From NCBI GenBank assembly GCA_003990765.1, contig RBNJ01000265.1, positions 1-34,881 on the forward strand: 34,881 nucleotides of DNA, read 5' to 3'. Origin of the DNA: Jimgerdemannia flammicorona (lineage: Eukaryota). Positions within the stretch are counted from its first letter, which is position 1. Each line of letters starts with the position of its first letter. Under the pieces are notes generated by a model. The model was not told the origin of the DNA. It saw nothing but the letters and a program-made list of their open reading frames with translations, and ran no database searches. Positions 1 to 33,900 of this stretch are shown here, piece after piece. The translations under genes were made by a program, and so were the position numbers.

Positions 1-3000
1 CAAGAACCTAGTACTATCCACACAGTCCATGAGAGCCAGCGACATGAACATCAATCTACAAGACTCGCCAATGGAAAAGTACATGGTGAAAATGCCAGAA
101 TTCTCGTCGATACTGGAGCAGCAGTATACATTATCACCCAAAGGATATTGGAGCAAATTGGATAGGGAATAGATGAAGGAACCAAAGCAAGAGTTATCAT
201 GGCCAATGGATCAGCTTCCACACCCCTTGGACTTGTCAGAGACATCCCCATTCAAGTTGAAAAGGCCTGCCTCAATGTACCCAAAGCTGTTATGACCCCC
301 GCAACCTCCTATGACCTGATCCTGGGAACTGACTGGTTAAGCCGAGTTGGAGCCAATGTAGATATCAAGAAACAACTCCTGGTCTTCTCCATTCATGGAC
401 AGAAGCACAAGGTGCCCATTGACTCAAAAGAATCATCTAAAAGGACGAATCAAGCCTCAGAAACAGAATGGCAAGGACATGGTGACACCCCCACTACTAC
501 CGAGAATGAAAGCGAGGCCAATTTCCTACAAGAACTAGGAAGTGATTTCAATGCCCCAAGGAACCAAGAAAGTGAACAAGAAGACTCTTTCATTGGAGTT
601 ATTGGTGTTGAAGGCCTGGAAGAAAGCATTGATAGAGCCATTAATGCAAGGGCAGCACTTGAGTTTGCAGGACCTTCTGCTCAACCACCACCACCACTGG
701 TAGAAAATCAGATCATGCGAGCCTTTCATCGAGGCGTATGTGAACATTTCATCAGCTTCCACTCACCAAGAGATGATTGCAGCAATTGCCGAATCCTGGA
801 TCTCAAGAAGGTTCCAATGCCAGAAATTGATGACAAGGATGAATTGAAGCAAGCACCATCTCACAGCCGAATACAACCTCCAACCCCGAAGACCTTCAAG
901 AAGACCTATAAGGAAGGACAGAAGATCCTTGCCTGCCAAACATTCGAGTCCCTTACCATCGAAGGAGAAAGCAACAGCTCTTACACTATCACCCAGGCCC
1001 TCCAGATCACACAGCCCACCTATGATAAGTATCAGAAGAGATTCCCTACCAGTAGGGAGGTCAAACAGCGAAATGAAGACTTTGTCAAGAAGGGACATTG
1101 TGATTGTGGAAAAACCTTTACCTGCTACTGGTGTGAACATCGAGATGTTCACCTCAGCGAAGATGTCTACAAGAGCCGAGTCAAGAGAAAGGATCCCACC
1201 CTGCAAGAACCTTGAATTTTCTGGGTCTGTTGGAAGTGCAAAGAAATCAACCATGAAGGAGATTGCAAGTTCAAGAGCAAGACCTCTATCTGGGACCTAC
1301 CATTGAGTTCTTGCCATCATTCACTGGTACTGTCGCTCTCATTAAGGAAAAGAAGGTGTCAATCTTGCCTTCATCCTTATGGAAGCTCTGGACCCTCTAG
1401 GAAAGACTGGATTCAATTACACAAGAAACTCAAAGACAGGAGCTCACTGGCCTTTCTTCAAACTGGAGCATATGGACTTCTCACCTACAATGACAACAGC
1501 TGAAGCACTATTTCTCAAAGCTCAACCAATTATCCAGGTCAAGCTGCTTTCACCCTGGGCACAGCCACCTCTTGTACAAACAGAAGAATCAGTTGGTTAT
1601 GACCTCTGCCTCCCCTATCAAGTAAGAATCCGACCCAGAAGTACCAGGACTTTTGACCTACAGATCGCACTCGCTATACCACCTGGGTATTATGGACAAT
1701 TGGCCTCAAGATCCTCATTGGCAGCCAAAGGAGTCACAGTAGAAGGAGGAGTCATCAATCAGGACTACCAAGGTCCCTTGAAGGCCATTATCTGCAATTC
1801 TAGTAGAACCAGCCAATTCTTCAGTCCTATGGAAGCCATCTGCCAAATCCTGTTTATTAAGACATCACAGCCGACCATCCAAGAGGTAGACCAACTAGAA
1901 GATACCAATAGAGGACAAGGAGGCTTTAGAAGCACCAATAGAAATCTACGGACACTACCTATTGAGGTTCATTTAGCAACAGTTGCTCAATTCTGAAAAA
2001 TGAGACCCCACATCTGCCACCCAATCCGAGCAAGAGAAGACATCCTCCTGCAGCCCTACCAGCAAAAAGGCCTAGATGTGCACCTACCAATAGAAGCAAA
2101 CAACTTGATGTTTGCACCATTACTGGAGCTTCAAAAGGAATACCACATCCTCCTGGCTGAAGAACGAATTCATGACCAGATGTCACTGATCCACATCCCT
2201 ATCAGAAACTCGGGCTTCAAAGTGATAACTATTCTCAAGGGAATAATACTGGGATATTTCGAACCACTGATAGATACCTATGAGGAAGAAGTCTTCGAAT
2301 TCTTGGGAAACAGCAAGCCCTCTCTGGTGAGATTGATGGTACCAGGGAGGAAGACTCTGCAAATTCAGCAATCAAAGCCATCAACATCGAGACAACTCTA
2401 ACCAAGGACCAGCAACAACAGATACAGGAGTTGATAGAGGAGTACAAAGATATATTTACCACCACATATAATAACTTCCCACCATATCAATATGGAGAAC
2501 ACCCTATACATACTGGAGATGCAAGACCAATCCGACAATGACCCTACCAAACACCACATCATCTGATTGAATTTGAACAACAACACATAGATGAAATGCT
2601 ATGAAATGGAGTCATCAGACCATCATCAAGCCCCTGGGCTTCACCAGCAATCATAGTACCTAAGAAAGGAGGATGGAGATTAGTCATAGATTTCAGAAAA
2701 CTCAACAAAGTCACCACAGAAGATGCCTACCCTCTGCCAAGAATTGATGACCTCATCAATGCCCTCAGAAAAGCCAAATACATGACCACTACTGACCAGT
2801 TCCAAGGATTCCAAGTAATACCCATTGCCAAAGAAGATATCTGCAAGACGGCCTTCATCACCAGACGAGGACAGTATGAATACCTACGAATGCCCTTTGG
2901 ACTCTACAATGCACCCACCTCATTCCAATGAATGATGAACTATGTCTACCAGGACCTCATTGGAAGAAATGTACTAGTGTATATAGATGATGTAATCATC

Positions 3001-5046
3001 TACTCTGAGACATTCAAGCAGCATTTGCAAGACCTCTGCGAAGTATTCAATACCATTCAAAATTCAGGACTCAGACTCAATGCCAAGAAGTGCTTCTTCG
3101 GAAAACATCAAGTCGAATATCTGGGATATGTTGTCTCAGCTCAAGGAACACATGCCAACCCCCGCAAGATGAAGAAAGTCAAGAACTACCCAACCCCGAT
3201 CTCAGCAAAGGAGACCCTATCCTTCCTTATGCTGGCATCCTATTATCGATGATTCATCCCAAGGTTTTCAGATAAGGCAGCACCTCTCCAAGATATCTCC
3301 AAGAAGGACCAACTATTCTACTGAAAAGAAGAACAACAAAAGTCATTCGACCTACTCAAGAAGGCCCTTACTGAAGCCCCTGTCCTGGTGCGACCAGACT
3401 TTGGCAAAACATTCATCCTGACAACTGATGCCTCAGCCTTAGGACTTGGATCAATTCTGTCTCAGCAAGATGACCAAAAGAGGGAGCATGTTATTAAATA
3501 TGCTAGCAAGGCTACGAATGAAACACAAGTGAACTATGGAGCCACTAAGTTGGAATGCCTAGCAGTAGTTTGGGCTGTGGACCACTTCTGACACTATCTC
3601 TTGGGAAAGAGATTCGCCCTCATCACTGACCATCAAGCTCTACAATAGTTGTTCAACAAGCCAGAGCCCTCAGGAATCTTCACTAGATGGATCATATCTC
3701 TACAAGAATATCAGTTCACTATTGTCTACAAGAAAGGTGCTAAGAATTCCAATGTCAATACCCTGTCAAGAATCCCACGAAACCAACAAGAAGGGAAGGA
3801 GCCCCCACAAGAGAAGGCTGCTTCCTGCTCATCCAAATGAACCAAGAATTGCGCCTCGCCCTCACCTGGAGCCTGCACCATAGAAGCTTCAAGAAAGGAA
3901 TCCAACCAGCCCACAAGTTGTTTATCCAAAGGAATTTCAAGAAATTCCAAGAAGGTGATGGCGAACTTTAGAGAGTAGAAGGAGAGCAGTATACCTGAGT
4001 TCCAAGAGAAGAAGAAATATTGAAGATCCTGACAACAAATCATGACCAAAATGCACACTAAGGAATTGGCACTACAATCACAAGAATCAAGAAGCGATAC
4101 TGGTGGCCCAAGATGAGAAAACAAATTTTAACACACATTCAACAATGTGATATCTGCCAAAGATACTGACAAAAGCCTACTGACAGAGCACCATTAATAC
4201 CAATTGCAGTACCAGCTGGAGCCTTTCAAAGACTGGGAATAGACATTATTGGACCCCTACCAGTAACCAGCCGAGGAAGATACTACATCCTCACCATCAA
4301 AGACCACCTAACAAAATGGCCTGAAGCCTTTGCCATTGAGACGGCCAATGCTCAGACAATTATTGGGATCCTGTATGATGAAGTTTTCAGCCGCCATGGT
4401 GTGCCCAAGGAAATCATTACAGACCAAGGCTGAGAATTCATCAACCAAGCCATGAAGACGTTTGCAAGCAACTTCAAGATCAAGCTATGACCAACAACAG
4501 CCTACCACTCTCAGGCAAATGGACTCGAACCAGACCATCAAGCGAGGTCTCAGTAGGACTGGAGATCAACTAAACTGGGATATCTATCTACCGGCAATTC
4601 TGTTCAGCATCCGTACCTCTAAGGCAACCACTACCCAACAGACCCTCTTCTATTTGGTATATGGCCAAGAAGCACAAGATCCTACTGAACCAGCCCAGCT
4701 AGATCTGTCAAAACGGGTCACAGAAGAGATCACTCGGTTACATGACATATGCCAGCAAGCACAAGGATTTATCGCCAAGGCACAAGAAGGACAAAAGAGG
4801 TACTATGACCGCAAAGCTGACCTTGAACCCCTTCTCATTGGACAAAAGGTTCTGGTGTACCATACTATCATAGAAGGAAATTGGAGTGCCAAGCTTGAAC
4901 CAAAATGGGAAGGCCCCTATCTCATACACCAAGTATTCTCGAACCACACTTATCAACTCAAGACCTTGGATGGAGTTATACTCAAGACCAAGATACACCG
5001 CAACTGCATAAGACTCTACTACTCAAGAGAAGCAAAACACATTTGA
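1..5046 (+). pseudogene. pol: Gypsy pol polyprotein, disrupted by stops and frameshifts
   Basis: ILVDTGA (D at 109) and YDLILGTDWL protease; SPWASP/LVIDFRKLN/MPFGLYNAP/YIDD (2980-2991) RT; LTTDASALGLG/KLECLAVVWA RNase H; HHCC, IDIIGPL, ITDQG, TAYHSQANG and KWEGPY integrase. Confidence 0.95.
1530..1945 (+). pseudogene. dut: dUTPase domain within pol
   Basis: All five trimeric dUTPase motifs: SVGYDL, ASRSSLA, GGVINQDYQG (D>N), AICQI, TNRGQGGFRST. Confidence 0.93.
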
Positions 5047-5090: not shown

Positions 5091-5579
5091 ATGGACATTT
5101 TACTCAGAACTTAAGAAAGCCAACAACGTAGGAACCAGACTCAAGCCCATCCACGTGACAGACATTGTTACTAAGAAATTACCTCAGATTACAAGTAATA
5201 CTATTTCTGATGGGTTCGAACCCCCAGCCGTGACTATGGGAGCCCTCGCTCTAGACAAGGATGGCCAGTCCTCACAAATGTGCCGACATTCTGCTTGTCC
5301 CTGGAGTTAAGACCACCCAACTCTGTGTAACCTTCACCGCCAAGGACGGCTCTAATTTTGCAAGGGGCAGATGTGATGTACACAATTGACAATGGAGTAC
5401 TGGTAACTGCTAAGATCAGACAACATAATGGCATAACAATCAAATAGACAGCCTGACCTATTAGGTGATCATCTCAAAAGAAGACAGGATGATCTGAGCC
5501 AAAATGATGACCATGTTATTTAAGGAACCATACTCTACCTCAGGGATCGGCACCAAAGAACCAAGTATCCACCACATAA
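5091..5579 (+). pseudogene. Putative post-integrase ORF crossing the PPT into the LTR
   Basis: ATG 5091 to TAA 5577-5579 in one frame (163 codons). Internal stops are all compatible with single C>T/G>A changes. The TAA overlaps the next ATG (TAATG). Confidence 0.4.
5362..5371 (+). promoter_or_regulatory. Polypurine tract, family A
   Basis: AAGGGGCAGA immediately before the TG LTR start. Confidence 0.75.
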
Positions 5580-6564
5580 TGCCTCCCATTTGCTGATCCA
5601 ACCAGACCTCCCACTGCTCTACCCCTTTGTCTGGCCCAAAGACCCTGATCTTTGAAGCTATCAAGAAGGCCATCTGGCATCCTGATACTTCCGAACACTT
5701 GAACTTCTACACCGAGGACCTTGGACACTTCATCAACTACTGGTATATAATGACCCAACAGCTCAAAGACACTACCGAACGAATGACCCTCTGGCATGAC
5801 TATGAAATCGGATACCGCCTTCGCAATGAGACTCAAGAAGACGACCAGGAAGACCTCATTACCGAATTGTTAACCACCAGCTGGCTAATCAAGAGAGCCC
5901 TCTGTGTCCACCAAATCTTTCGCCATATTCCCTAGGCTATAGCACACTTGCAAGGAGTAACAGCTGGCAGCCTCTCCTGCCTTTTAACTGAAGATGCTGA
6001 CTGGATAGAATCTGAAGTAGCCAACTCTATTGGCAGCAACTGCATCGCCATAGGAAGCCAACAAACCGAATCTACTCAGCTAGATTTCCACACTACTCCA
6101 CTCCGAGATAACTATCAAGATCACCTAATGAGTCTTATGGAGATATTTGAAGGACTGCCCATTACCATAGAAGCACCCATTGGAGCTACCCCAACCACCC
6201 ACCACCTTGTCAGCCACAATTCACACCTCATCATTTGGGAACTGAATCAAGAAGAAGCTCAAGAAGTTCCTGTCTTTGAAGAGGAGGCCCAAGAACTCCA
6301 AGACCCTGCCCTGAAGAAACCCCCTCTGACACTGAAACTGACAAGTCTTCAGAAGAAGAAGAGGAGCAACAGAGAGTCTACCAGTCCTCTGTCTGCATTC
6401 AAGCAGTTCAGGGATTGGAAAATGTTGTCAAAGATGACTGGCCACTTTTCTACCCCCTCACCTCTTGGCCGGCACTTCCCCCCTTTGAGGAGAGATATGA
6501 TAAAGAAGAAATTGCAACCCAGCAAGATTTGCCTGCCATGGATGAAGGGTACTATTTCCTCTAG
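5579..6564 (+). pseudogene. LTR(U3)-encoded protein of unknown function, family A
   Basis: MPPI...IFEAIKKAI...WHDYEIGYRL...VHQIFRHIP*AIAHL...DFHTTPLRDNYQDHLMSLMEIFEG; two point stops and one probable frameshift near 6312 into an acidic tail; homologous to the family B LTR ORF. Confidence 0.8.
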
Positions 6565-6939
6565 AAGTACCACCCATCAGCTGTGAGAATTGTGCAGCCT
6601 TCATGTCAGCATTTGTCAGCAAGTCAGCAACACCTGTTTTCAGCGATACTACCCACAACATCCATATCCAGCACTAGCACTCATCTTATCCCAATTCAGT
6701 ACAAACAATTGTCACACCCGTTTCCAGCATTGCTACCCAGCACAACCGAATCCAGCATTGCTACCCAGTACTACCATTTTCAGCAATCATGTCAGCTCAT
6801 CCAAATCCAGTATTGTTATCTCCTATAACCCAATCCATAGTAAACAATAGCCTGTACCTTGCATCGTGCAAGCCAATAGTATAGCAAATGTTCGCCACAA
6901 CATAGTATACCTTAGCTGTGCCCATAGCTAGCAAACTTG

Positions 6940-6978
6940 TATAAATAACCCATATTCTTAGAGTGAATAAACCTCAGT
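6940..6978 (+). promoter_or_regulatory. LTR core promoter / poly(A) signal
   Basis: TATAAATA 6940-6947, AATAAA 6966-6971, TCAGT 6974-6978. Confidence 0.7.
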
Positions 6979-7967
6979 CAACTGGTTTTGAGAAATAACC
7001 ACTACCTCCAAGAGACTGGATAAATTCTGAGAACAAGATAACAATCTAGAGCAATGGATCACTTGGAAGTTTGAGTTAAAGAATTTTCTCTTGCCACAGA
7101 AAGAAAACATTACCCGACCGCCGCCATTCAACTGCCATTCAAGACCCGAGACCCAGCCAAGGATTCAAGACTATGACCGCCATGCATTCAGACTGCCATT
7201 CGGACCGCGCATTCGACTGCCATTCGAGATTCAAGACCCCGGCAACACAGCTAAAGAACCCAAGGAACCCAAGTTATCCAGCCAAAGGATACAAGACTGC
7301 TGCCAAAGACCCAAATGACCACCAGGAACCTTTCAAGTTAACAAGTCGAGATGGACGAGCGAGCTGTCAACCTCTGTTTTCCCAACCTACTGTGCCATGA
7401 ACCGCTTAAAGTCAAGACCATTGCCTGCTTCAAATCGACTGCATATTCCACTAAAGTTTATTGCCACCAGTACACCCAAGTAACCACCCTCTGTTAGCAA
7501 CAACATCTTTTTCCACTGAATATTGAGCCACCATCATCGAACAATCTCTTGCTATTATCAATTACTGCATGAATCGAATGAGCCGATCATGTGATCAATG
7601 ACCCGCAACCGTCGCAAACATACTTATATCCATCACGTGCTTCACCAAGTAGCACATTGAGCCGTGCCAGAAGAGAACCAGGGATACAAACATGACACCA
7701 CAATAGACTAGACTTATCCATTTACCAGAGCTGGATCATCATGACTATATATAAGAGTACACCTATATATTAGATCTATCAATACCAGGACAAAATAAAA
7801 AATAGTCCCCCAAATACCAAACAAAGACCCAAGGCAAAGAAAAACCCCCCAACTAGTCAACAGAAGACAGAATAGATTCAGAGCAAATGAGTAAAGAACT
7901 TATACATAGAGCTCTCTCAAAAGGACTAATATGTATATGCTAAGACTTAAAAAAACCTCACTCCAAT

Positions 7968-8102
7968 TCTCCAAGCCTGTGAGCCTTGATCATATTGCTG
8001 TGTCAGCTCTCAGTTCTAGTCAGGTACTGTCAAATGAGGGAGGTTCTACTCTCCAAGCCTGTAGGCCTTGATTATATTACTATATTAGCTCTTAGTTCTA
8101 GT
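7968..8102. repeat. Imperfect direct repeat (~53 bp, period 82)
   Basis: TCTCCAAGCCTGT..GCCTTGAT.ATATT.CT...AGCTCT.AGTTCTAGT at 7968-8020 and 8050-8102. Confidence 0.8.
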
Positions 8103-9183
8103 TGGATACAGCCAGGATACTGGCCCCTGTACTACCCCACTCTCTGCCAGCCAATCAAAAGGCTCTATCAAGATAATGTCTGTCTCAATCCCAATAACTG
8201 CCCCCAGTCTAGTACTCTACTGGTCTACTGTTATTATCTTTCCACTTATCTATAATAGCCATCTCCCCTCCTATTCTAATTCTACCTGAAAAGCAGTTAT
8301 CTATACTAGAACTATACTCACCAGAAAGCTTATTAAAACTCAGAGAGCCCCACTATAGGTACTAAGGATCTGCAGGTAATCTACACTGGTACTTGATACC
8401 CAAGGTTGGCTGCAGTCTATGACATACCAGATGATATATATTTTGTTGATAATGGTAAAAGGAAAAAAACACTATACTAAAACAGATATACTCTAGATAT
8501 AGCTGAAGATACCAGAAACTGTAAAAAAGTATAGAAGACACTAATCTGATACTAATAAAGGGACAACTCAACACTATTGTCTCCCTCCTACCATACCCTT
8601 ACAGATACAGCAAACCAACCAAAGATAGAGAGGGTAATAATAGAGGAAAGGAGACTCAGAAGGTTATCTATCAAATCTTATAATTAATAAGATAGTTGAG
8701 AAAGGGGTGGACTAATTATATTTATTATAATATAGATAAATAGTATTAGTTCTATATATGTCTACTAATCTTGGTGTCTAATTTAATTAATCTTACTTCT
8801 GTTTTTAGTATTTATTATAGATCTTGATAAATCATCTGATATCTTCTTCTATTTTAGGCCACTATATTGTTCTTCTTACTTTGTCATAGGTATTTGTTCC
8901 TCTTAGATAACTAAGTTTATATACTGACTCATTACTTATTCCTTCTTATACTCTGATATAACTAGTAGTTTTTTTTTCTTCAGTATTTCTCTATTAGTTT
9001 TGAATTATTTTAGATTCTGTTGATAATTTTTTATATCTATTCTCCCAGATATTGAGACATTTTTTACTATCTCAGATAGATGATAATTCTATAGTAGAGT
9101 TTCTTATTCATTTTGGTTTTACTAGTTATAGGTCCTTTAGAGTGTCTGTAAGAGTATCTATTGTAATAGTGACCCCAGAATAA

Positions 9184-9328
9184 GTCAAGTTCTTTGGGAC
9201 TACTGACATTTGAAAAAATTGGAATGATACAGAGAAGATTAGCATGGCCCCTGCACAAGGATGATACTATCTCCCTGAGTAGATAGCCCTATATGGGTAA
9301 GTTTTTTAAAAAAAAAAAAAAAAAAAAA
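9184..9328 (+). pseudogene. U6: U6 snRNA retrocopy (or U6-derived SINE) with poly(A) and TSD
   Basis: AAAATTGGAATGATACAGAGAAGATTAGCATGGCCCCTGCACAAGGATGATAC core (ACAGAGA 9229-9235, AGC 9241-9243); 5' stem-loop; T6 9302-9307; A21 9308-9328; TSD GTGACCCCAGAAT at 9169-9181 and 9329-9341. Confidence 0.95.
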
Positions 9329-9563
9329 GTGACCCCAGAATGATGACATCAACACAGGAGACAGTCTTTCCTTGTAAGCCACCAGATCGGAGCACAAGAA
9401 GATCATATGGTATACGAGATGAGCAATGATGACCAACTGTAAGTCATTGTGACCACAGTACAAGCATCCTGAAGAATATAAAAGAAGGATCAAGGAACTG
9501 CAGTAGTAGTAACCAATAAGAACCACCAATTCTAAAATAGCTCAAAGACTTACTATAAATGAA

Positions 9564-10355
9564 ATGCCTGCTGCCCACCAAACCTCAAGATCAAGGAATC
9601 ACTAAGGCATCTCAGTTGAGGAAAGAATATTCCAAGACATCAGAAGAGCCATGAAGATCTGCTCAAGAAGAACTCCTAGTATCAACCTGGGTACTGCAGA
9701 TCCCTATCACTTTATTCTCTACCACTGTGAAATGGAAACAAGGATTACTGAATACCTCCAAATGTGGCAGGAGTATGAAATAGGAAACCTCCTCTGCCAG
9801 GAGTTCCTACAGGCCAGCACTCAATAGCTACAAGATACCACTTCCATGGATATACGTGAAACAAGGACAGCTAAGAAGATCTATCAGATCTTCAGGCATG
9901 CACCATGATCGATCTCCAACTTAGAGTATGTTAGAGTCTCAGACTTCAGAGATCTGTCATCTCACTATATCAATACCCTAGAAGCCAGGGTGACTACAGA
10001 AGCCCAGTTCACTATTATCCTCAATAGTGATAAAGTAGAAGACTTCTGGCATCCCATCCTTCAGGACAACTCAGACCAATTTCTGCAAGGATTGATCTCA
10101 GTATTCTAAGGCCCAAGCATCCAGATTAGATCTCCTCAAGACCCCACATTTGTCCCCTATTTTGTAGAAGAGAACCTCATAGACTGGAGAGCCCCAGACC
10201 TCCTTCCTACCACCAAACATGATGATGTCATCGGTGATGATGTCATCCTGCATGATATCAAAGCATGCGAAATGTGCGACATATATGAGATGTGTGACCA
10301 GCATAACAACAACAATGAATTCATGGACCTCATCTCCTTTGAAGATATCCTCTAA
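9564..10355 (+). pseudogene. LTR-encoded ORF, family B copy 1
   Basis: MPAAHQTSRSRNH...MWQEYEIGNLL...; colinear with copies 2-4. Confidence 0.8.
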
Positions 10356-10833
10356 GTTCTTTGTTATACTGAATAATGCCAGTACCAGTATTTTGATGTA
10401 ATACTGGATAATGCCAGCACTGGTATTCTGAGGTGATGCAAAATTATTCCAGCACTAGTATTCTGATATGATACTGAATTATACCAGCATCCTGAATCTG
10501 TACAACCATCAGTACTGACCCTGGAACTTAGTAGTTTTAGTTATTAGAATTTATATTTAGCTTTATATCTTAGCAACCATTGAATTATATTTTGTATAAA
10601 TATCCCTCTTATTTCCTCTGAAATAAAGTCAGTCAACTCAGTGCAATACACATACTTCCTTGCAAGCAATCTAAGAGATAACAAGATAGTTAAAGATAAG
10701 AAGTTTGAGGACTATAAGACCTTGGGAAGATACTCCAATAAGAACTTGCTTATAACAAACTTGAGTTAGTCTAAGAGATACATCTTGAAGAGAATCTGGC
10801 ATATTTGAAGGACTCAGCGACCACTATATAACA

Positions 10834-11134
10834 CTATATTGATATTGATTCTTTCTGAGCTTATAGTTTCATAATATATCTGATAAATATTCCTTTGGAT
10901 TTGCTTGTAGTTAATAACTAAATAAGGGTCAAATAGTTAGTTAGGATAGTGAAATATCTTTCTATAAGATAGTAGTTGAACTTTTTTATATCTCAGATAA
11001 CTACAAGATACTCTAGCTTATATATAGAATTTATATTCTCTTTCTCCTCTAGCTGAGATATACAATCACATATTTGACTTTATCTTTTTTGTATAAGAAC
11101 AGCTCCTAGTCCAATTGAGCTTATATGTATCTAT
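10834..11134 (-). pseudogene. Highly decayed gypsy RNase H (old host element, probably continuing left of 9161)
   Basis: Minus strand reads SSIGLGAVLIQK...KLEYLVVI*DIKKFNYYLIERYFTILTNY...KGIFIRYIMKL. Confidence 0.75.
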
Positions 11135-12631
11135 TGTAATGGTAACTCCAGAATGATGACATCAGCACAGGAGATAGCCTTTCCTTGTAAGCTACCAGAT
11201 TGGAGCACAAGAAGATCATACAGTATACAAGATGAGCAATTATGACCAACTATGAGTTATTGTGACCACAGTACAGACATCTTGAGGAATATAAATGAAG
11301 GATCAAGAAACCACAGTAGCAACAACTCAATAAGACCCACTAATCCCAAAATAGCTCAAAGACTTACTACAAACAAAATGTCTGCTGCTCACCAAACCTC
11401 AAGGTCAAGGAACCACCAAGGCACCTCAGTTAAAGAAAGGATGTTCCAAGACATCAGAAGAACCATGAGGACCCATATAAGAAGAACTCCTAGTATCAAT
11501 CTAAATACTGCAGATCCTTATCACTTTATCCTCTACTGTTATGAAATGGAAGCAAGGATCACTATTGCTACTAAATGCCTCCAAATGTGGCAGGAGTATG
11601 AAATAGGAAACTTCCTCTGCCAGAAGTTTCCACAGGCCACCTCAAGAGTTACAAGATACCACTTCTATGGATATATGTAAAACAAGGACAGCTAAGAAGA
11701 TCCATCAGATCTTCAGGTATATACTATAGTCAATCCCTAACTTGGAGTATATTAGAGTCTCAGACTTCAGAGATCTGTCAGCCTGCCATATCAATATACT
11801 AGAAGCTAGGGTGGCTATAGAAGCCTGGTCCACCATTACCCTCAATAGTGATAAAGTAGAAGACTTCTGGCATCCCATCCTCTAGGACAACTCAGACCAA
11901 TTTCTACAAAGATTGATCTCAATATTTCAAGGCTCAAGCATCTAGGTTAGACCTCTCTAAGACTCCACATTTGTCCCCTATTTCATGGAAGAGAACCTCA
12001 TAGATTGGAGAGCCTCTGATTTCTCTACCGAACATAATGACATCATTAGTAATGATATTATCCCACATGATATATGTGAAATGCACAACCTATGTAATGA
12101 TGATGAGATGGACAAAACATTCATGTATCTTATCTCCTTCAAAGACATCCTGACCTCTGATGAGGATGAAGCCCCTATGGTCTTGAACATTCTGCTCTAA
12201 GTTCCTTAGTTACACTGAATTATTCCAACACTATTTTTCTATATTACTGAAATTATATCAGTATCCTGAACCTGTGCAACCATCAGTACTGACACTGGAA
12301 CTTAGCAGTTTTCCATATCCTGGCATTTTATTTTAGTCATTGGAATTTATATTTAGCTTTATATCTTAGCAACCATTAAATTATATTTTGTATAAATACC
12401 CCTCTTATTTTCTCTGAAATAAAGTCAGTTCCTCTCAGTACAATACATATAATTTCTTGCAAGTAATCTAAAGAGATAACAAGATAGTTTAAAGATAAGA
12501 AGTTTGAGGACTATAAGACCTTGGGAAGGCACTCCAATAAGAACTTGCTTATAACAAACTGAGTTAGTCTAAGAGATATACCTTGAAGAGAATCTGACAT
12601 ATTTGAAGGACTCAGCAACTACTACATGATA
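11135..12631 (+). repeat. 5' LTR, family B copy 2
   Basis: TGTAATGG...CATGATA; colinear with the other three copies. Confidence 0.92.
11378..12200 (+). pseudogene. LTR-encoded ORF, family B copy 2
   Basis: MSAAHQTSRSRNHQ...WQEYEIGNFL...EAPMVLNILL*. Confidence 0.8.
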
Positions 12632-12634
12632 ACT

Positions 12635-12652: not shown

Positions 12653-12751
12653 AATTTGAGATGAATCTCTCACTTTCAAGCTGAAAAACAAACAACCACC
12701 ACAACAACTACTCTGACTACAAGAGTCACCCCTGCAAGAATTCAAGACAAG

Positions 12752-14343
12752 ATGGAAATATATCTCCCTATATTCTATGGATATATTACTAAAGAGTCAA
12801 TCCTGACCTTCATTGAAGACTTTGAACAATTCACCACCATACAAGCTCTTGGTGTGGATGCACAATTGGCTCTTCTACCAGTCAGCCTCAGAGGACCTGC
12901 CAGAGACAAGTTCAATGCAGCCACTATTGCTGATAATAGTGCAGCCAAACTTGCCAACATGAAGGCCTTTCTCAGAACAAAATACTATACTGAAGAGATC
13001 AAGCAAGCTCTCAAGGATCAACTCAACACTATCTGTTAGAGACTCAGTAAAGATTTCAACTCATTCTATACCTGAATCTGCTACCAGATTATCTTGGCTG
13101 GCTATGATAACTGCCTCAAGGAACAAATAGCAGATTCAACCTTCCTCAAAGGAGTTCACTCTGAAATTGCCCTAGCAATCCAGTCTATCCTAGCTGCACT
13201 GACTCTTGATCAGAAAGTGGTCTTTGTATAGAGATATTGGACTACCAGACACCCTACTGAACACTTAATGGAGAAAATAACTGGTATCAAGATAGAGCCA
13301 TCAAAGTTAACTAGTATCATACCTACTACAGTTGTAAACAGACAACTATCCCCATCTACCCCCAAGGTAGCCAAAACTGACCCAGTGGAGGAACTTACTA
13401 AGTAGTTCACCAAGATAACTGCATACCTTGGTGATGTTAGAGAAGTCTGAAGCACCAACAGGAGACCAGTGCAGAGATTTGTAGCTGCTACAGAAGAATG
13501 CAATATCATATGTTTTAGATGTGGAGAAGAAGACCACTATACAAAGAGTTGCATGACTGAAATAAGATACAAAGCCCAACCAAATAATGCTAGCAGAACC
13601 AGAGAACAAATCAATGCAGTAGTCATCAAGAAGATTGGTAATACTGATGATAAAGAATACTATGAGAAGCTTGAATTCTACCCTACTACTGAAGGTACCA
13701 GAACCTGGTCCAAGCTCTATGACGAGAAGAGCAACAGCAAGCCAGTTAGAAGACTAAAGAAGACCCTAGCTGTCACTATTTAAAGCAAGACCCAACTCAA
13801 GGAGATTGATCAAGACATGGAGTTAGATAAAGCTGCCTGCCAAATTATTGAAGGCACTACTCCAGTCTCAGGAGAAAGCAAAAACAAGAAGGAACAGAAG
13901 CTACATAAGACTAAGATCCACTAGTATGATATCTACAAGGACTTCAAGGAACAGAAGGTCAATGCTACTTTTAGACAACTAGCCAAAGTTCCTGCCTTCA
14001 GACAGCAGTTGAGAGTAGGACTTGCAACTACTGCCAAGAATCAAGAGTACAAGATTGTAGAAGCTCACAATATACAAGAAGATGATCAAGAAGACTCAGG
14101 CAAAGAATCTGAAGACTAGTGCAAGACATCAGCCTATACTCCATGTCAGATCAAAGATTGTATCTTTGATGCTATCATTGATACTGGTGCTGGAGGATGC
14201 CTCATAAGCAAGAAGGCAATTGACTGCCTAAGCTGAGATATTGAAGAGTCTACTAAAATGGTCTATGTTACAGCAGATAGTATACAAGCTACCCCTCTTG
14301 GCAAAATCTGAGAAGTCCCCATCAAGATAAGAAGAGCTACTAT

Positions 14344-14346
<3 letters not shown>
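12752..14346 (+). pseudogene. gag: gag plus aspartic protease, family B
   Basis: PIFYG...FIEDFE...LRGPARDKF capsid-like region; CFRCGEEDHYTKSC knuckle 13511-13552; AIIDTGA (D at 14180). Confidence 0.9.
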
Positions 14347-14391
<45 letters not shown>

Positions 14392-14455
14392 GTCTCTTGG
14401 ACTGCCCTTTATTACCGAAGTCTATAATGTATATAATACAATGTCACCCCTGTCC

Positions 14456-18117: not shown

Positions 18118-18190
18118 ATTGAAGAAATGTTGCAATAGAGACCCCAATCTATAATTCCATGCTCATCTCATCTCCTGCCAGATCCAAGCG

Positions 18191-22695: not shown

Positions 22696-22746
<51 letters not shown>

Positions 22747-25767: not shown

Positions 25768-26767
25768 TTTCCATTTCTTGCTGTCAGGGTTGGTTATAGC
25801 TTTATTATATATATTTGGCTCACTGGAAGATATCATGATATATGCATATTCATATACTTTCACATAGCTCATGTGGTTCTTATATTACTATCAAGAGCTT
25901 TTTGGCATATCCCAATTCTGAACAAGTTTCTTACTAAACATTTGAGTATTTTTTACCCTTTGTAGAGATAGAGGATTCCTTATCATTGGAGGATTTACTA
26001 CTATCTTCATTCTTGATCCCCATTATCCTTAGCTCAGGCTCAGATATGTATAGTAGTTGAAAATAATTTTAATTAACTACTGGAGAGGTGGACAATGGTT
26101 GCACTGGTTACTGCATTTGTACTGGCTAAGATATAGAGGTTTTGACTAGTACTTCCATATAGATCTCTCTTTTCTTTGAATTATACATCATAAGAAATTA
26201 CTATATACCACTTGTATAGATCTCATAGCCAGTATACTTTGCTGGAATACTCAAGAAATATATGCTTGCTTACCTTGAGTTCAAATTTATCCTATATAGT
26301 ATTGCTTTTGTCAAGGATATATACCTTGTAACTGAATATACATAGATGGGATATATTGGATTTAGATCTACTCTATAATTCTTCAGAGGTAAGATTATTA
26401 TTATTATCAGTATCTATGCTCAGAATTGAGATATGTATCAATTACATATATACACTATGGTGCTTATCACTTCAGTCCAATAAGAATATAATAGTCTGGT
26501 GGCATTGATCATTATATACATATACTATTTCTACAACCATATAGTTAAATCACTCAGCTATACCATTCTGCTGAGGTATATAGAGAGCTATTATTTGATA
26601 GATTATGCTATGTTTCATCAGGAACTGTTTGAATACATAGTTGATATATTTAAGTCTATTATCTGATCATATAGTATATATTTTACATCTAGTTTTATTT
26701 TTAGTAATTGTTTTGAATTCTTTGAATTTATCTAAGGCCTCACTTTTCACTAATAGGAAATATATAT
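25768..26767 (-). pseudogene. pol: Copia integrase core / IN-RT linker (continues at 32098)
   Basis: Decayed PDET*HN/NGIAE*FN, LDLSHLNSE(HLR-like), KFELKVSKHIFLEY motifs; EP...Y.KAITNPDSKKW. Confidence 0.7.
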
Positions 26768-28281
26768 TGTAATGGTGACCCTAGAATGATGACATTAGTA
26801 CAGGAGACAGCCTTTCCTTGCAAGTTACCAGATTAGAGTACAAGAAGATTATATGGTATATGAGATGAGCAATGATGACCAACTGTGAGTCATTGTGACC
26901 ACAGTATGAGTATCTTGAGGAATATAAAAGAAGGATCAAGGAACTATAGTAGCAGCAACCAACAAGACTCACCAATTCCAAAATAGCTCAAAGACTTACC
27001 ACAAATGAAATGCCTGCTGCCCACCAAACCTCAAGGTCAAGAAACCACCAAGGCACCTCAGTTGAAGAAAGGATATTCCAAGACATCAGAAGAGCCATGA
27101 GGACCCACTCAAGAAGGACTCCTAGTGTCAACCTGGGTACTGCAGATCCCTATCAATTTATCCTCTACTACCATGAAATGGAAACAAGGATCACCATTAC
27201 TACCAAATGCCTCCAAATGTAGCAGGAGTATGAAATAGGAAATCTCCTCTGCTAGGAGTTCCCACAGGTCAGCACTCAAGAGCTATAAGATGCCACTCCC
27301 ATAGATATACATGAGGCAAGAACAGCTAAGAAGATCCATCAGATCTTCAGGCATGCACCATGGTCAATCTCCAACTTGGAGTATGTTAAAGTCTCAGATT
27401 TCAGAGACCTATCATTCTACCATATCAATGCACTAGAAGCCAGAGTGGCTATAGAAGCTCAGTCCACTATCACCCTCAACAGTGATGAAGTAGAAGACTT
27501 CTGGCATCCCATCCTTCAGGACAACCCAGACCAATTCCTGCAAGGATTGATCTCAGTATTCCAAGGCCCAAGCATCCAGGTTAGACCTCCTCAAGACCCA
27601 TATTTGTTCCCTATTTTGTGGAAGAGAACCTCATAGACTGGAGAGCTCCAGATCTCCTTGTTTCTGTTGCTGCCGAATGTGATGATGTCATCGGCAATGA
27701 TGTCATCCCATGCAACATTGAAGCATGTGAAATGCATGATGATGACAAATTCACAGATCTCATCTCCTTCAGTGATAATGATGAAGCCTCCATGGTCCTG
27801 AACATCCTGCTCTGAGTTCTAGGTAATACTGAATAATGCTAGCACCAGTATTCTGAGATAATACTGAATAATGCCAACACTGATATTCTGAGGTAATATT
27901 AAATTATACCAACACCTAAACCTGTACAATCATCAGTACCGACTCTGGAACTTAGCAGTTTTTCCTGTCCTGGCATTTTATTTTAATTATTGGAATTTAT
28001 ATTTAGCTTTATATCTTAGCAACCATTGAATTATATTTTGTATAAATACTTCTCTTATTTTCTTTGAAATGAAGTCAGTTCCTCTCAGTACAATATACAC
28101 ACTTCCTTGCAAGCAATCTAAGAGATAATAAGACAGTTTAAAGATAAGAAGTTTGAGGACTATAAGACCTTAGAAATGCACTCCAATAAGAACTTGCTTA
28201 TAACAAACTTGAGTTAGTCTAAGAGATATACCTTGAAGAGAATCTGATATATTTGAAGAACTCAGTGACCACTATGTGACC
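26768..28281 (+). repeat. 5' LTR, family B copy 3
   Basis: Direct repeat of 30508-32097. Confidence 0.95.
27010..27815 (+). pseudogene. LTR-encoded ORF, family B copy 3
   Basis: ORF fragments 27010, 27376 and 27618 join with one -1 shift. Confidence 0.82.
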
Positions 28282-28400
28282 ACTTGGTGCCCATTGGCTG
28301 GTGATTCAAGATGAATCCCTCACTTTCAAGCTGAAAAATGAACAACCCCCACAACAACTACCCTGACTACAAGAGTCACCCCTGTAAGAATTCAAGATAA

Positions 28401-30142
28401 GATGGAAATATATCCCCCCACATTCTATGGATATACTACTGAAGAGTCAATCCTGACCTTCATTGAAGACTTTGAACAATTTGCCACTATATGAGCTCTT
28501 AGTGTGGATACACAATTAGCTCTTCTACCAGTCAGCCTCAGAGGACCTGCCAGAGATAAGTTCAATATAGCTACTATTGTTGATACTGGTGCAGCCAAAC
28601 TTACCAACATGAAGGCCTTTCTCAGAACAATATACTATACTGAAGAGATCAAGCAAGCTCTCAAGGATTAACTCAATACTATCTATCAGGGACTTAGTGA
28701 AGATCTCAACTCATTCTATACCCAAATCTGCTACCAGATTGTCTTGGCTGGCTATGATGACTGCCTCAAGGAACAAATAGCAGATTCAACCTTCCTTAAA
28801 GGAGTTCACCCTGAAATTGCCCTAGCAATCTGGTCTACCCCAGCTGTACTGACCCTTGATCAGAAAGTTGTCTTTATACAGAGATATTGGACTGCCAGAC
28901 ACTCTACTGAACACTTAATAGAGAAAATAACTGGCATCAAGATGGAGTCATCAAAGCCAACTAGTATCATACCTGCCACAGTTATAAACAGACAACCAAC
29001 TCCACCTACCCCTAAGGCAGCCAAAGCTGACCCAGTGGAGGAACTTGCCAAATAGTTTAAACTAGACAATACTACATTCAGAAAAGGAGGAAAGCTAGTA
29101 ATATCCGAATACAAGAAGTATCAAGTAATGAAGGAAGTACACAAGCAAGGATACCTAGGAGGAACTAATATATATGACAAGGCAAGAAGAACCATGTGGT
29201 GGCCTAAGATGGAAGAAGACCTGTACCAATTTGTCAAAGAGTGTGACAAGTACTAAAAACAGAAACAAGATCAGCAAGACCAGGCATCCAGGTCATCAAG
29301 AATTGAGCCTATCCCCTTCCACCACATTGCAATAGATATCATTGAGCTATTATCAGTAATACTATCAGGAAACTACTATATTATAGTTATTGTAGACCTC
29401 TTTACAAAATGAATAGAAGCAGGAGCATTACAAGAAGTCAATGTCCTCTCTATTGCTGACTTCCTGCATCGAGAAATCATCTGCCACTACAAGACACCAA
29501 AACAAATTACAACAGACTGCAGCACAGAATTTGTCAACAGATTCCATGAGAATGTATTAAAAATACAAGATTCAGCACATAAAGACTACTGCATACCACT
29601 CTCAAGGAAATGGACAGACAGAGAGAACCAATAAGACCCTCAAGAACATCCTGGTGAAGATCTCAGAGACACATGAGAATTGGAATAATTATCTCCCAAC
29701 TGCCCTCTCTGTCCTACAAGACATATAGTCACAGAGCACATACTTTACCCCAAGAAAACTGCTCTTCGGAGAAGAAGATTTTAATAGAACCTCAGCTATA
29801 AATCTAGACCTAACTTGGAGATGGGTTGATGCAGAAATCCAGAGACTACACCAAATCAGGAAGAAGGCTGAAGATTACATCATCAAGTCATAAGTGCTAA
29901 TAAGAAAGAATGCAGAAAAGAATCACAAGACCCTAGAACCCATCCAAATCAGAGAAAAGGTCCTACTGTATTGAAATATAATAGAAGTCTCATGGTTGTG
30001 AAAACTGGAGCTCAAATGAGAAGAACTCTTCTATGTATAAGATATCAAGAGAACTACCTTCTGGCTTAGAAAAATCTCAGAGACCATATTGTCTACCATA
30101 GTACATAGGAACAGACTCAAGAAGTACCATAAACCTATATAA
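28401..30142 (+). pseudogene. gag (N-terminal part) joined in frame to integrase
   Basis: ...DPVEELAK*F|KLDNTTFRKGGKLVI...VHKQGYLG...WWPKMEEDLYQFVKECDKY, IAIDII, VDLFTK, ITTD, TAYHSQGNGQTER. Confidence 0.88.
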
Positions 30143-30749
30143 GAGAAGCAAAATATAATGACCACCCATGAGGTTCTAGTCTGTAAATCATAATAGCATA
30201 TCCCTTGACCAGCAGACTATTTGTCTGAACTATTCTCTAAGGAATACAGTACCAGCAACTACTCATCCATAAGACTTTTGAAGCCAGAGGAGTTCAAACC
30301 ATCAATTGATTGGTCAAGATCAGAATTAGGCCCTTGCTCTATATGAAGAGAGCAACTCTTCACCATCATGCCAAAATACATAGAGAAGATACTAGCCCAT
30401 AAATACCACTTTTTGACCCCTTGCCAGAGGTTATGGGATCAGCAAATTTTTCAGGACTGGACCAATGAATAAGGATGATTCAAGGAGATCCTTATTCAGA
30501 AGGAAGATGTAATAGTGATCTCAGAATGATGACATCAGCACAGGAGACAGCCTTTCCTTGTAAGCTACCAGATCAGAGTATAAGAAGATTATATGGTATA
30601 TGAGATGAGCAATGATGACCAACTGTAAGTCATTGTGACCACAGTATGGGTATCTTGAGGAATATAAAAGAAGGATCAAGGAACCACAGTAGCAGCAACC
30701 AACAAGACCCATCAATTCCAAAATAGCTCAAAGACTTACCACAAATGAA

Positions 30750-31556
30750 ATGCCTGCTGTCCACCAAACCTCAAGGTCAAGGAACCACCAAGGCACCTCA
30801 GTTGAAGAAAGGATATTTCAAGACATCAGAAGAGCCATGAGGACCCACTCAAGAAGGACTCCAAGTGTCAACCTGGGTTCTACAGATCCCTATAACTTTA
30901 TCCTCTACCACTGTAAAATGGAAACAAGGATCACCATTGCTACTGAATACCTCCAAATATGGCAGGAATATGAAATAGGAAATCTCCTCTACTGGGAGTT
31001 CCCACAGGCCAGCACTCAAGAGCTATAAGATGCCACTCTCATAGATATACATGAAACAAGGATAGCTAAGAAGATCCATCAGATCTTCAGGCATGCACTA
31101 TGGTCAATCTCCAACTTGGAGTATGTTAGAGTCTCAGATTTCAGAGACCTGTCATCCCATTATATCAATGCACTAGAAGCCAGAGTGGCTACAGAAGCTC
31201 AATCCACTATCACCCTCAATAGTGATGAAGTAGAAGACTTCTGGCATCTCATCCTTCAGGACAACCCAGACCAATTCCTGCAAGAATTGATCTCAGTATT
31301 CTAAGACCCAAGCATCCAGATTAGACCTCTCCAAGACCCCACATTTGTTCCCTATTTTGTGGAAGAGAATCCCATAGACTGGAGAGCTCCAGATCTCCTT
31401 GTTTCCACCACTGCCAAATGTGATGATATTATCAGCAATAACATTATCCTGCATAATATTGAAGCATGCAAAATGTGTGACAACAATAAATTCATGGATC
31501 TCATCTCCTTTAGTGATGATGATGAAGCCCCCATGGTCCTGAACATCCTGCTCTAA
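30750..31556 (+). pseudogene. LTR-encoded ORF, family B copy 4 (268 aa, single frame)
   Basis: Fragments 30750, 31116 and 31359 share one frame and are interrupted only by point stops. Confidence 0.85.
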
Positions 31557-31571
31557 GTCTCATATTATATG

Positions 31572-31725
31572 GAATAATGCCAGCACTGGCATTTTGAGGT
31601 AACACTGAATAATGCCAGCACCAGCATTCTGAGGTAACACTGAATAATGCCAGCACTGGCATTTTGAGGTAACACTGAATAATGCCAGTACCAGTATTCT
31701 GAGATATGTAACACTGAATTATACT
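31572..31725. repeat. 35-bp tandem array in U3
   Basis: GAATAATGCCAGCACTGGCATTTTGAGGTAACACT units at 31572, 31607, 31642 and 31677. Confidence 0.92.
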
Positions 31726-32097
31726 AGCAACCTGAACCTATACAACCATCAGTACTGACCCTGGAACTTAGCAGTTTTTCCTGTCCTGGCATTTTATTTT
31801 AGTTATTGAAATTTATATTTAGCTTTATATCTTAGCAATCATTGAATTATATTTTGTATAAATACTTCTTTTATTTTCTTTGAAATAAAGTCAGTTCCTC
31901 TCAGTACAATATACATACTTCCTTGCAAGCAATCTAAGAGATAACAAGACAGTTTAAAGATAAGAAGTTTAAGGACTATAAGACCTTGGGAAGGCACTCC
32001 AATAAGAACTTGCTTATAACAAACTTGAGTTAGTCTAAGAGATATATCTTGAAGAGAATCTGGTATATTTGAAGGACTCAGTGACCACTATATGACA

Positions 32098-33900
32098 ATA
32101 TATACCTTATATATATAATTATTGATAAATGTGAGAAAGTATCTCTTTTTAGAATACATCAGTCCATATATATATATCTATATATATGAGGTTGAGGATC
32201 TCTGATATATACTTTAATTGTTCTTTGAATAGTCACTGAGATGTCTTATTTATTGTACAATCTTCATAGAAGAAATTGTTATATATATATATATGTATCA
32301 GTAATCTATTGATGGATCTACTCCTTATCATATATTTGAGGCTCATCTTGTTAATATGTCCTAAGCATTGATGATATATATTAGATACATCAGGTATAGT
32401 TGTTGTATATGTGGAGACTTTTGCACTACTCAGTATACTATTGATTATATAAAGATTGCCACATTTTGAGACTATCATTAACCTCTTATTATTATATGAA
32501 TTTACAATGTTGTATCCTTTGAATGTATATGTATCTCTTTGTTACTATAGATTATCATTTTGCCTATAGAGAAGAGGTTCTTTTCTATATCTAGAGTATA
32601 TAGTATATCTGCAAGAGTAGCAGCAGACTCAATAACATCTCTATAGAGATATATTCCAACATTTCTCTCTTCTTGAGCATAAATAACATTATTATCTCTC
32701 AACTTGATAGATATAGAGTATTCAAATGGTTGATATATAGTGAACTATTCCCTATGTGATATCATGTATTGTGTGGTCATTAATCAGATATCATTATTAT
32801 TAGCTGTATTGGTATATTCACCAGATATATAACTAGGCATATAGTTGACAGTTTTTTTATATATACTACTGATGGTACTGATATAATTACTGCTTTTTAT
32901 TAGCCCAAAAGTATTTCACTAACTAGTGCTTATAGATGATGAATTGGTAGATTTGGTGGTAGATCTTATACTAGTAGAACTAGTAGAACTGGTACTAGTA
33001 GTAGATTTGGTGGGATTTTTAATCTAAAATTATCATACTTCTCTCAATAGTTCTACTACTTCTATGTTACTAATACTTACCTTTTTCATGCTTTTCACCA
33101 CTCTCCTTGTCATTTTCTCAGTATTAATATTGGTACTTTCTATATCCATACTTGCTATAGTATTCACAATAACTATTATACTTAGTTGATTGGCTATCAT
33201 ATTATTGAGCTTGGATTTGGTTTCATTGGCTTTATTGACTATATCTTTGATCTCATTTGGCATCATATCTACAGAACTCATAGAATGCCCTTTTATTATC
33301 ATTTTCTTTAGTATTATTTCCTTGGTATATTTTCTCATTCATGAGGCTCATTATTATATAAGTATAGTCTATAAGAGTACTGCTCTCATATATGACTATG
33401 ATAACAATATTATATATATCTAGAAGTTCCCTTATAAGTACTATAATCTTATTTTTATTATTGATACAATCTATAGATATGCTGAGGGAATTCACTTGAT
33501 TCACCAGATCATTGACATGACTGATATATTTATGAATACTCTTTTTGGGCATTATTTAAAGATTGAATAGCTGAGATTTCAGATAGAATCTATTTGATAC
33601 AAATGCTTATATATGATGATTACATAGGACTTCCTATATTTTATTAGCCATATTTACATATATTATGAGCTTCATTTATAAGTTTGACAATTTAAATGCA
33701 ATCTTGCATAATACTCAGTAATTGTTTACAGAGTTATAGTCTTGAATCTGTACTTATGGCTTTGTATACTCTATCAGACTGTATTAATCAAGAAGATTCA
33801 TCATATGGAATATCCAGATGATATAATCTTTCCAATCAAAGATCAGGATGGACCTCTTGGCTATATTTATATGTACTTACAATATAGACTGCTCTCATTA
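32098..33900 (-). pseudogene. gag: Copia gag, protease and GAG-pre-integrase, heavily decayed
   Basis: YHQCLGHIN (WHxRLGH), DILYTLDIEKNLFSIGKM, KSIHKYISHVNDLVNQV...IIVLIRELLDIY; start approximate. Confidence 0.75.

Follow-up and report, generated by a model that had tools for sequence, protein, structure and literature searches.

A probable accessory gene within the long terminal repeats of divergent Ty3/gypsy elements from Jimgerdemannia flammicorona

Positions 1 to 34,881 of contig RBNJ01000265.1 of Jimgerdemannia flammicorona (assembly GCA_003990765.1), referred to here as the window, contain decayed eukaryotic retroelements nested in one another (Table 1). It holds two families of gypsy-type elements, family A, with a single long terminal repeat (LTR) in the window and no second copy, and family B, with four LTR copies (B1 to B4) that are 85-91% identical to one another and have the termini TGTAATG...ATGACA. 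Each of the four family B LTRs, and apparently that of family A, contains an open reading frame (ORF) with a conserved MP(P/A) start, which an earlier note made from the DNA alone (the original prediction) had described as a conserved accessory protein encoded in the U3 part of the LTR of both families. The evidence presented here indicates that this ORF is very probably a genuine, selected accessory gene inside the LTRs of a gypsy lineage.

The frames of the two families were found at the positions originally claimed (from 5579 in family A and at 9564, 11378, 27010 and 30750 in family B) and encode colinear, homologous proteins. By BLASTP the family A protein matches that of B3 at E=4e-16, with 51/178 residues identical (29% over 178 aa), and that of B4 at E=6e-14, a non-significant alignment between the families having been named beforehand as the result that would speak against the claim. 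All of the conserved blocks that had been described are present, namely IFEAIKKAI/IFQDIRRAM, YEIG, HQIFRH.PW, L.DN and F.GP.I, and the LTR DNA is as dissimilar as had been stated, with blastn of the family A LTR against the family B LTRs giving no match longer than 29 nt. As a control for frame the family A LTR was compared in all six frames with the four family B LTRs by tblastn; one frame of the six matched (E values from 1.5e-12 to 2e-9) with the other five giving E values of at least 0.2. Since a single frame matches and the DNA is unalignable, the similarity between the families lies at the level of the protein, in one frame, rather than in residual likeness of the DNA.

All five copies in the window are dead, carrying premature stops and/or frameshifts. 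In family A there are in-frame stops at codon 6 (TGA, 5594-5596) and codon 119 (TAG, 5933-5935) and a frameshift near 6304-6325, and the acidic tail, which had originally been read on to 6564, is out of frame there, the true frame running through 6304-6504 and on to about 6540. The best-preserved copy is B4, with 268 codons, two premature stops and its natural stop retained. Measured against intact homologs, the window copies most often show V>I, P>L, R>C, E>K, R>H and R>W, as expected from C>T/G>A decay; they are pseudogenes, decayed through C>T change, whose relatives elsewhere are intact. Among the family B LTRs 163 of 249 private substitutions are C>T or G>A, 77 of these 163 being in a CpA/TpG context, and the observed/expected ratio of CpG in the elements is 0.05-0.28. 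The C>T/G>A bias is consistent with decay like that of repeat-induced point mutation or driven by methylation, and would suit a fungal host.

The intact relatives were recovered from protein collections and metagenomes. A word-indexed search of 5.8 billion proteins gave two relatives of the family A protein among 582 candidates and six of the family B protein among 48, with intact A-type ORFs of 324, 325 and 331 aa that are 72-74% identical to the window copy and intact B-type ORFs of 247 and 271 aa that are 77-86% identical. A profile search of 1.84 billion representatives returned 13 proteins at E ≤ 1e-3 (six of them at E ≤ 1e-10), all 40-342 aa long and none fused to another domain. The intact relatives span 214-342 aa (P0006 and P0008, 325 and 324 aa; P0014, 271; the ORF of contig L001, 323; P0020, 342; P0019, 214), the more distant intact members being P0019, P0020, P0022, P0023, P0026 and P0028. 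All members come from metagenome collections, where they are annotated at most as 'hypothetical protein'. A scan of metagenome contigs gave 221 pattern matches with one true relative, L001, a 1345-bp contig with an intact ORF of 323 codons that represents a third lineage and whose frame is closed upstream of the ATG according to the ORF list; a scan of IMG/VR gave 79 pattern matches and no relatives.

The ORF is under purifying selection between family B and L001. Comparison of the B copies with L001 by the Nei-Gojobori method gave a ratio of non-synonymous to synonymous substitution (dN/dS) of 0.13-0.17 (Fisher p ≤ 5e-19), with pN of 0.22-0.24 and pS of 0.65-0.71 over 200-209 codons after 15-24 codon columns with gaps or stops had been skipped, while shifting the same aligned DNA by one or two bases raised dN/dS to 1.05-1.93. 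The claim of a selected protein-coding gene is thereby borne out. Between families A and B, the pair for which a dN/dS near 1 had been named as evidence against it, synonymous sites are saturated (pS 0.80-0.84), making that pair unusable for dN/dS. In the core of the ORF, B and L001 share 66-67% of nucleotides with 6-7 gap columns, as against 44-51% in a gappy alignment of the tail and the spacer that follows it. Between A and B the LTR proteins are 29-30% identical and the integrases 30-34%; since the two have diverged to a like extent, the LTR gene appears to have diverged with the elements and was probably inherited with them rather than recently captured. Three points weigh against such a gene in these elements. 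The family is very small, as the 13 profile matches indicate; with all members coming from metagenomes, genomic context can be checked in three lineages only (A, B and L001); and the pS between B and L001 is near saturation, making the value of dN/dS a rough one.

That the ORF lies inside an LTR is directly seen for family B and was arrived at indirectly for family A. In family B a primer-binding site (PBS)-like TGGTGCC and gag, with its CCHC knuckle, come after LTRs B2 and B3, and integrase followed by the polypurine tract (PPT) AGAAGGAAGA precedes LTR B4. Direct LTRs with TG..CA termini, the 5′ one followed by a PBS and the 3′ one preceded by a PPT, are as in a Ty3/gypsy element. Of the order gag, protease, reverse transcriptase (RT), RNase H and integrase, gag and protease are seen after LTR B2 and integrase next to the PPT and 3′ LTR of the B3-B4 element, both copies having lost RT and RNase H by deletion or truncation; family B appears to be gypsy as judged from gag, protease and the 3′-terminal integrase, with RT outside the window. 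Family A has the order protease, RT, RNase H and integrase, then PPT and LTR, expected of Ty3/gypsy (Metaviridae), with Pfam matches to RVP_2, dUTPase (PF00692, E=1.3e-29) and RVT_1 in that order and an integrase, including its C-terminal part, recognised in read-through translations. The relatives of its RT-RNase H region carry gypsy-type Pfam sets and are at most 48% identical, the named ones being from a pseudoscorpion, a frog, plants, Chara, a beetle, Rhizopus and Rhizophagus. The placing of the family A ORF within its LTR is inferred from the PPT and the TGTGATG that follows (5360-5379) and from motifs in common with family B. Against it, the 5′ LTR of this element is outside the window and the ORF could formally be an ORF3 standing before a shorter LTR. 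The ORFs start 207-242 nt into the LTR, in line with the 210-240 bp originally estimated, and, as was also claimed, stop before the TATA box TGTATAAATA in these LTRs.

Table 1. Retroelement features of the window and their coordinates
Feature	Position	Strand	Remarks
Family A internal part, decayed	1..5046	+	protease, Cys-rich stretch, dUTPase, RT, RNase H, integrase; window begins within element
Polypurine tract GCAAGGGGCAGA	5360..5371	+	directly before family A 3′ LTR; analogous to AGAAGGAAGA before B4 LTR
Family A 3′ LTR	5372..7100	+	begins TGTGATG, like TGTAATG of B; 3′ end approximate (about 7060-7200)
AATGATGACCA, 11-mer upstream of ORF	5503..5513	+	exact at 5503, 9425, 26871, 30611; one mismatch at 11238
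TATA-like box TTATTTAAGG, candidate ORF promoter	5516..5525	+	54 nt before ATG, no ATG between
Family A LTR ORF, part 1	5579..6325	+	conserved MP start; stops at codons 6 and 119; tblastn with P0008 residues 1-253, 73.5% identity
Family A LTR ORF, part 2 (acidic tail), other frame	6304..6540	+	tblastn with P0008 residues 247-313 matches 6304-6504, 86.6% identity; end near 6540 extrapolated
28-bp tandem repeat x2.6, family A	6713..6785	+	between ORF and second TATA box
TGTATAAATA box then AATAAA, putative promoter of the genomic RNA and poly(A) signal	6938..6971	+	AATAAA ~20 nt after TGTATAAATA
LTR copy B1, 5′ end truncated	9325..10839	+	ORF 9564-10355, 4 premature stops
LTR copy B2, a 5′ LTR	11128..12632	+	ORF 11378-12197, frameshift near 11640 plus stops
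Family B gag (CCHC knuckle) and protease start	12665..14330	+	interrupted by LINE insertion; protease matches that of family A
LTR copy B3, 5′ LTR of deleted element	26761..28280	+	ORF 27010-27812, frameshift near 27597 plus stops
35-bp tandem repeats x2.9-3.3, family B	27817-27916; 31572-31688	+	between LTR ORF and TGTATAAATA
Internal part of B3-B4 element	28281..30507	+	PBS, gag, internal deletion, integrase, PPT AGAAGGAAGA
LTR copy B4, 3′ LTR	30508..32103	+	ORF 30750-31556; TATA-like box 30660-30670; 35-bp repeats 31572-31688; TGTATAAATA at 31855

The layout of the LTR is the same in families A and B and, as far as its contig extends, in L001. About 150 nt of LTR start precede a TATA-like box and hold the common 11-mer AATGATGACCA, a motif that was picked post hoc and has two further one-mismatch matches outside the LTRs. 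In all four family B LTRs the motif GAATATAAAWG stands 80-90 nt before the ATG, and it is found again at position 1 of L001. The leader from the TATA-like box to the ORF is 54-80 nt long and free of ATG in A and L001, and the 68 nt upstream of the ORF are 69% identical between L001 and B. Between the ORF and TGTATAAATA lie 170-400 nt, with tandem repeats in A and B. These repeats resemble U3 enhancer repeats and have a CCAGCAYT-like core in common, with different short repeats occupying the same position in L001. The CCAGCAYTRG core of the A and B arrays gives five matches against 0.32 expected, a pattern that was defined post hoc, is absent from L001 and was not relied on. Each of the five LTRs holds a single TGTATAAATA, with no others in the window, and L001 holds it too; in all of them AATAAA follows. 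In family B some 200 nt separate AATAAA from the end of the LTR, and about 430-470 nt of LTR remain after the ORF in B2 and B3. If the genomic RNA starts after TGTATAAATA, AATAAA would lie at or before the start site, R would be short and the ORF would be in U3. The original assignment to U3 holds in that the ORF is upstream of TGTATAAATA, with the label itself presuming a start after this second TATA box.

The protein has an isoelectric point of 4.5-6.0 and is predicted by AlphaFold2, from a 17-row alignment, to have a helical core. In the P0008 model the mean pLDDT was 61.8 with residues 20-155 mostly at 70-93, and the model of P0019, which is naturally tail-less, reached a pLDDT of 76.4 and a pTM of 0.70. 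The C-terminal third is predicted to be disordered, with 18-30% D+E and short conserved hydrophobic motifs (DLISF and P..LNFLL in the B type). Neither a transmembrane nor a hydrophobic segment was found in seven members, the maximum 19-residue hydropathy (KD19) being 1.09 against a threshold of 1.6, in agreement with the original statement that the protein is not env-like. A match to an already described family, which had been named as counting against novelty, was not found in Pfam or PDB searches. In Pfam the window copies gave only a sub-threshold match to Fungal_KA1 (E 0.11, P0002), and 17 members gave five families with one member each (E 0.044-0.99), none of them common to the group; the family profile gave one match among PDB sequences, at E 0.49, and P0008 gave no usable match in the ESM Atlas. 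Foldseek returned no matches at E ≤ 0.001 in PDB with both models or in BFVD with the P0008 model.

The weak structural resemblances came from VIA-align. For the P0019 model, ParB/SopB/KorB/VirB-type DNA-binding domains made up eight of the best 50 rows, all below the noise level of the tool (Z<5), with Z of 2.7-4.0, rmsd of 3.9-5.9 and 73-83 residues aligned over model residues 72-159 or 76-193, and about 11 further rows of the best 50 were other bacterial helix-turn-helix (HTH) or sigma-type proteins as judged by their titles. This resemblance of the P0019 model to HTH DNA-binding domains is a lead below noise and not a membership. Several results weigh against a DNA-binding role. Among 48,161 chains no match reached Z ≥ 5 with either model, the best Z being 4.2; ParB-type rows numbered none of the best 50 for the P0008 model and none in Foldseek; and the net charge of the conserved domain is negative, -2 to -9 across residues 20-160, an uncommon property among DNA-binding proteins.

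From the arrangement of motifs in the LTR, the ORF may form an independent transcription unit within each LTR, a reading whose chances appear close to, if a little short of, even. The TATA-like box 60-90 nt upstream of the ORF would start an mRNA with the ORF as its first ATG, this mRNA would end at the AATAAA of the same LTR and be monocistronic, and TGTATAAATA, downstream of the ORF, would start the genomic RNA. There are points that count against it: TATA-like words are common in AT-rich DNA, making the ORF promoter a putative one; in B1, B3 and B4 another ATG, which may have arisen by C>T decay, precedes the start by 5 nt; and a search of sequencing runs found the stretch in no RNA run and in three soil-metagenome DNA runs (one study, word shares 0.05-0.13). 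The chief competitor, with a distinctly smaller though appreciable share of the probability, is expression in the manner of retroviruses, in which the ORF lacks a dedicated promoter and a spliced or subgenomic derivative of the genomic RNA would carry it from the U3 of the 3′ LTR, the upstream TATA-like box being incidental. With a start after TGTATAAATA the ORF region would be transcribed only at the 3′ end, and this is the route known for the U3-overlapping genes of complex retroviruses such as mouse mammary tumor virus (MMTV) sag and human immunodeficiency virus (HIV) nef; the conservation of the upstream box and the 68-nt leader between B and L001, and the lack of ATG in the leader of A and L001, speak against it. 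In passages of the source on MMTV, sag is termed LTR-encoded (PMC11998498). Slightly less probable is that transcription of the element starts after the first TATA-like box, placing the ORF in an R region of ~1.1-1.3 kb as the 5′-most cistron, an ORF0 before gag, with TGTATAAATA as part of a two-part poly(A) signal. Such a long R would require a poly(A) signal 1.2 kb from the cap to be bypassed, and in both families the tandem enhancer-like repeats come shortly before TGTATAAATA as in an ordinary U3, even though TGTATAAATA with AATAAA ~20 nt further on resembles the efficiency and positioning elements of fungal poly(A) signals. To our knowledge there is no precedent for an R region of more than 1 kb. 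ORFs upstream of gag do exist in plants, as in the Retrosat2/RIRE ORF0 treated in parts of PMC3485330.

What the product does is a separate matter from how it is expressed. It is tentatively suggested, with the probability well below even, that a protein with a helical core and an acidic disordered tail bearing conserved hydrophobic motifs might act in trans in the nucleus on the expression or chromatin of its own element, as an activator or anti-silencing factor. For the transactivator or silencing suppressor originally proposed, the only hints are the acidic disordered tail and the sub-threshold likeness of one of the two models to HTH domains. More doubtful is the fuller scheme in which each LTR would be a complete gene, with its own promoter and poly(A) site, for a family-specific trans regulator with a helical, HTH-like core and an acidic tail of the activation kind, acting on the tandem repeats upstream of the genomic promoter, a feedback of the Tas/Tat kind in an element with no env. 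Were this true, solo LTRs would keep supplying the regulator and its dose would track copy number. The same gene could have another job, about as likely as a regulator and likewise improbable when taken singly, either as a dosage-dependent inhibitor for copy-number control or as an acidic chaperone or cofactor of the basic Gag/NC or of integrase. The protein is acidic throughout, its tail included, and the dose of an LTR-borne gene would rise with copy number, solo LTRs included; Ty1 p22 is a precedent for self-restriction. Yet no evidence singles out an inhibitor or cofactor role. Finally, the ORF might be no gene of the element at all, being either a captured fragment of a host gene carried along by the LTR or a conserved non-coding part of the LTR left open by chance. 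This is very improbable given that the low dN/dS is specific to the frame, that the ORF persists across families with integrases as far apart as those of A and B, that the longest of the 13 profile matches reaches only 342 aa and none is domain-fused, and that the 17 members scanned have no Pfam family in common.

Other features of the elements were recorded in passing. The dUTPase of family A (1379-1996) sits between protease and RT, and the ~230 aa that separate protease from dUTPase are rich in Cys and His and match nothing in Pfam (window 199-1996); dUTPase-bearing gypsy elements are reported from basidiomycetes and bdelloid rotifers (sections of PMC5408684). Past the recognisable family A LTR is a CpG-rich patch at 7100-7300 in CpG-depleted surroundings, within which a 12-bp repeat, CATTCAGACTGC, is present in 3.4 copies at 7185-7225. 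In region 7000-9324 neither gag nor any other domain was recognised apart from a faint, inverted trace of integrase. This trace, to Integrase_H2C2 on the minus strand (~8820-8900), lies ~50-120 nt upstream of, and overlaps the start of, an inverted fragment at 8790-8965 that matches 29095-29271 (73% identity), the family B internal stretch at or just before the start of integrase, and the fragment is probably the remnant of another, inverted insertion of B type. The B3-B4 element has only 2.2 kb of internal DNA, with gag joined to integrase and protease, RT and RNase H deleted, and is a non-autonomous derivative in which both LTR ORFs are still kept. The family B element beginning at 11128 has been invaded by an element like a long interspersed nuclear element (LINE) on the minus strand at 14331-20065. 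It has an intact first ORF of 624 aa (18191-20065) with no Pfam match, an endonuclease/exonuclease/phosphatase trace at 17447-17899, RT at 15722-16336, a poly(A) tail that appears on the plus strand as a run of T near 14331-14390 and a GC content of 53-57% against 30-46% in its surroundings. A diverged second LINE-like copy, 63% identical, is at 22702-25035.

The selected gene, which probably lies wholly within the LTR in both families, is kept across gypsy families with integrases of ~30% identity. In that position it would be present in two copies per full element and one per solo LTR, and LTRs, solo LTRs included, could be protein-coding units. Annotation of transposable elements that treats LTRs as non-coding would miss such genes, which may explain why the relatives are all unnamed metagenome ORFs. 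A gene in the LTR also offers a simple system for the regulation, in trans, of a retrotransposon by itself or of its host.

Genes embedded in LTRs are a textbook trait of a few complex vertebrate retroviruses, and the extra ORFs of LTR retrotransposons are thought to occupy the internal region. In the open-access literature no gypsy element was found described with an ORF inside its LTR, and among the 1.84 billion representatives no known extra ORF was related by sequence, the 13 matches all being short orphan ORFs. The accessory frames nef of HIV and simian immunodeficiency virus and bel/bet of foamy viruses extend into the U3 of the 3′ LTR, but begin upstream of the LTR and overlap it, in contrast to the gypsy ORF, which starts 207-242 nt inside the LTR and has its stop 300-400 nt ahead of the TATA box. 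Neither by sequence nor by fold was a match to nef, bel/bet or Tas/Bel1, Tax or Tat found (PDB sequences; Foldseek against PDB and BFVD). An env-like ORF3 of the gypsy/errantivirus kind was ruled out by the lack of a hydrophobic segment and by the same internal start, and an ORF0/ORF1 of the plant Tat/Ogre/Retrosat2 type by the ending of the ORF within the LTR, with PBS and gag following the LTR directly in B2 and B3.

The ORF0 of Retrosat2, RIRE3 and RIRE8 in grasses and the ORF3 of bdelloid rotifer elements are, like the gypsy LTR gene, accessory ORFs specific to a lineage, with functions that are diverse or not established. As described in parts of PMC3485330, ORF0 changes more quickly than pol, its Ka staying well under its Ks, and, in sections of PMC5408684, the ORF3s of bdelloid rotifers occur in elements with a dUTPase as separate transcription units. 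By these same accounts, ORF0 lies between the 5′ LTR and gag and the bdelloid ORF3 between pol and the 3′ LTR (PMC3485330; PMC5408684), whereas the gypsy ORF is within the LTR itself. Membership of the LTR protein in Sag was ruled out, with a maximum 19-residue hydropathy of at most 1.09 in seven members and no Sag Pfam match in 17, and the two differ in that Sag, the superantigen of a vertebrate betaretrovirus, is a type II transmembrane glycoprotein and the gypsy LTR protein has no transmembrane segment and belongs to an element with no env. According to passages of PMC11998498, MMTV sag is nevertheless an ORF of ~320 codons within the LTR, present in both LTRs and under purifying selection, and MMTV has a dUTPase, adjoining protease, which element A also has. 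MMTV sag is thus the nearest architectural analogue of the gypsy LTR gene, the resemblance being one of architecture only.

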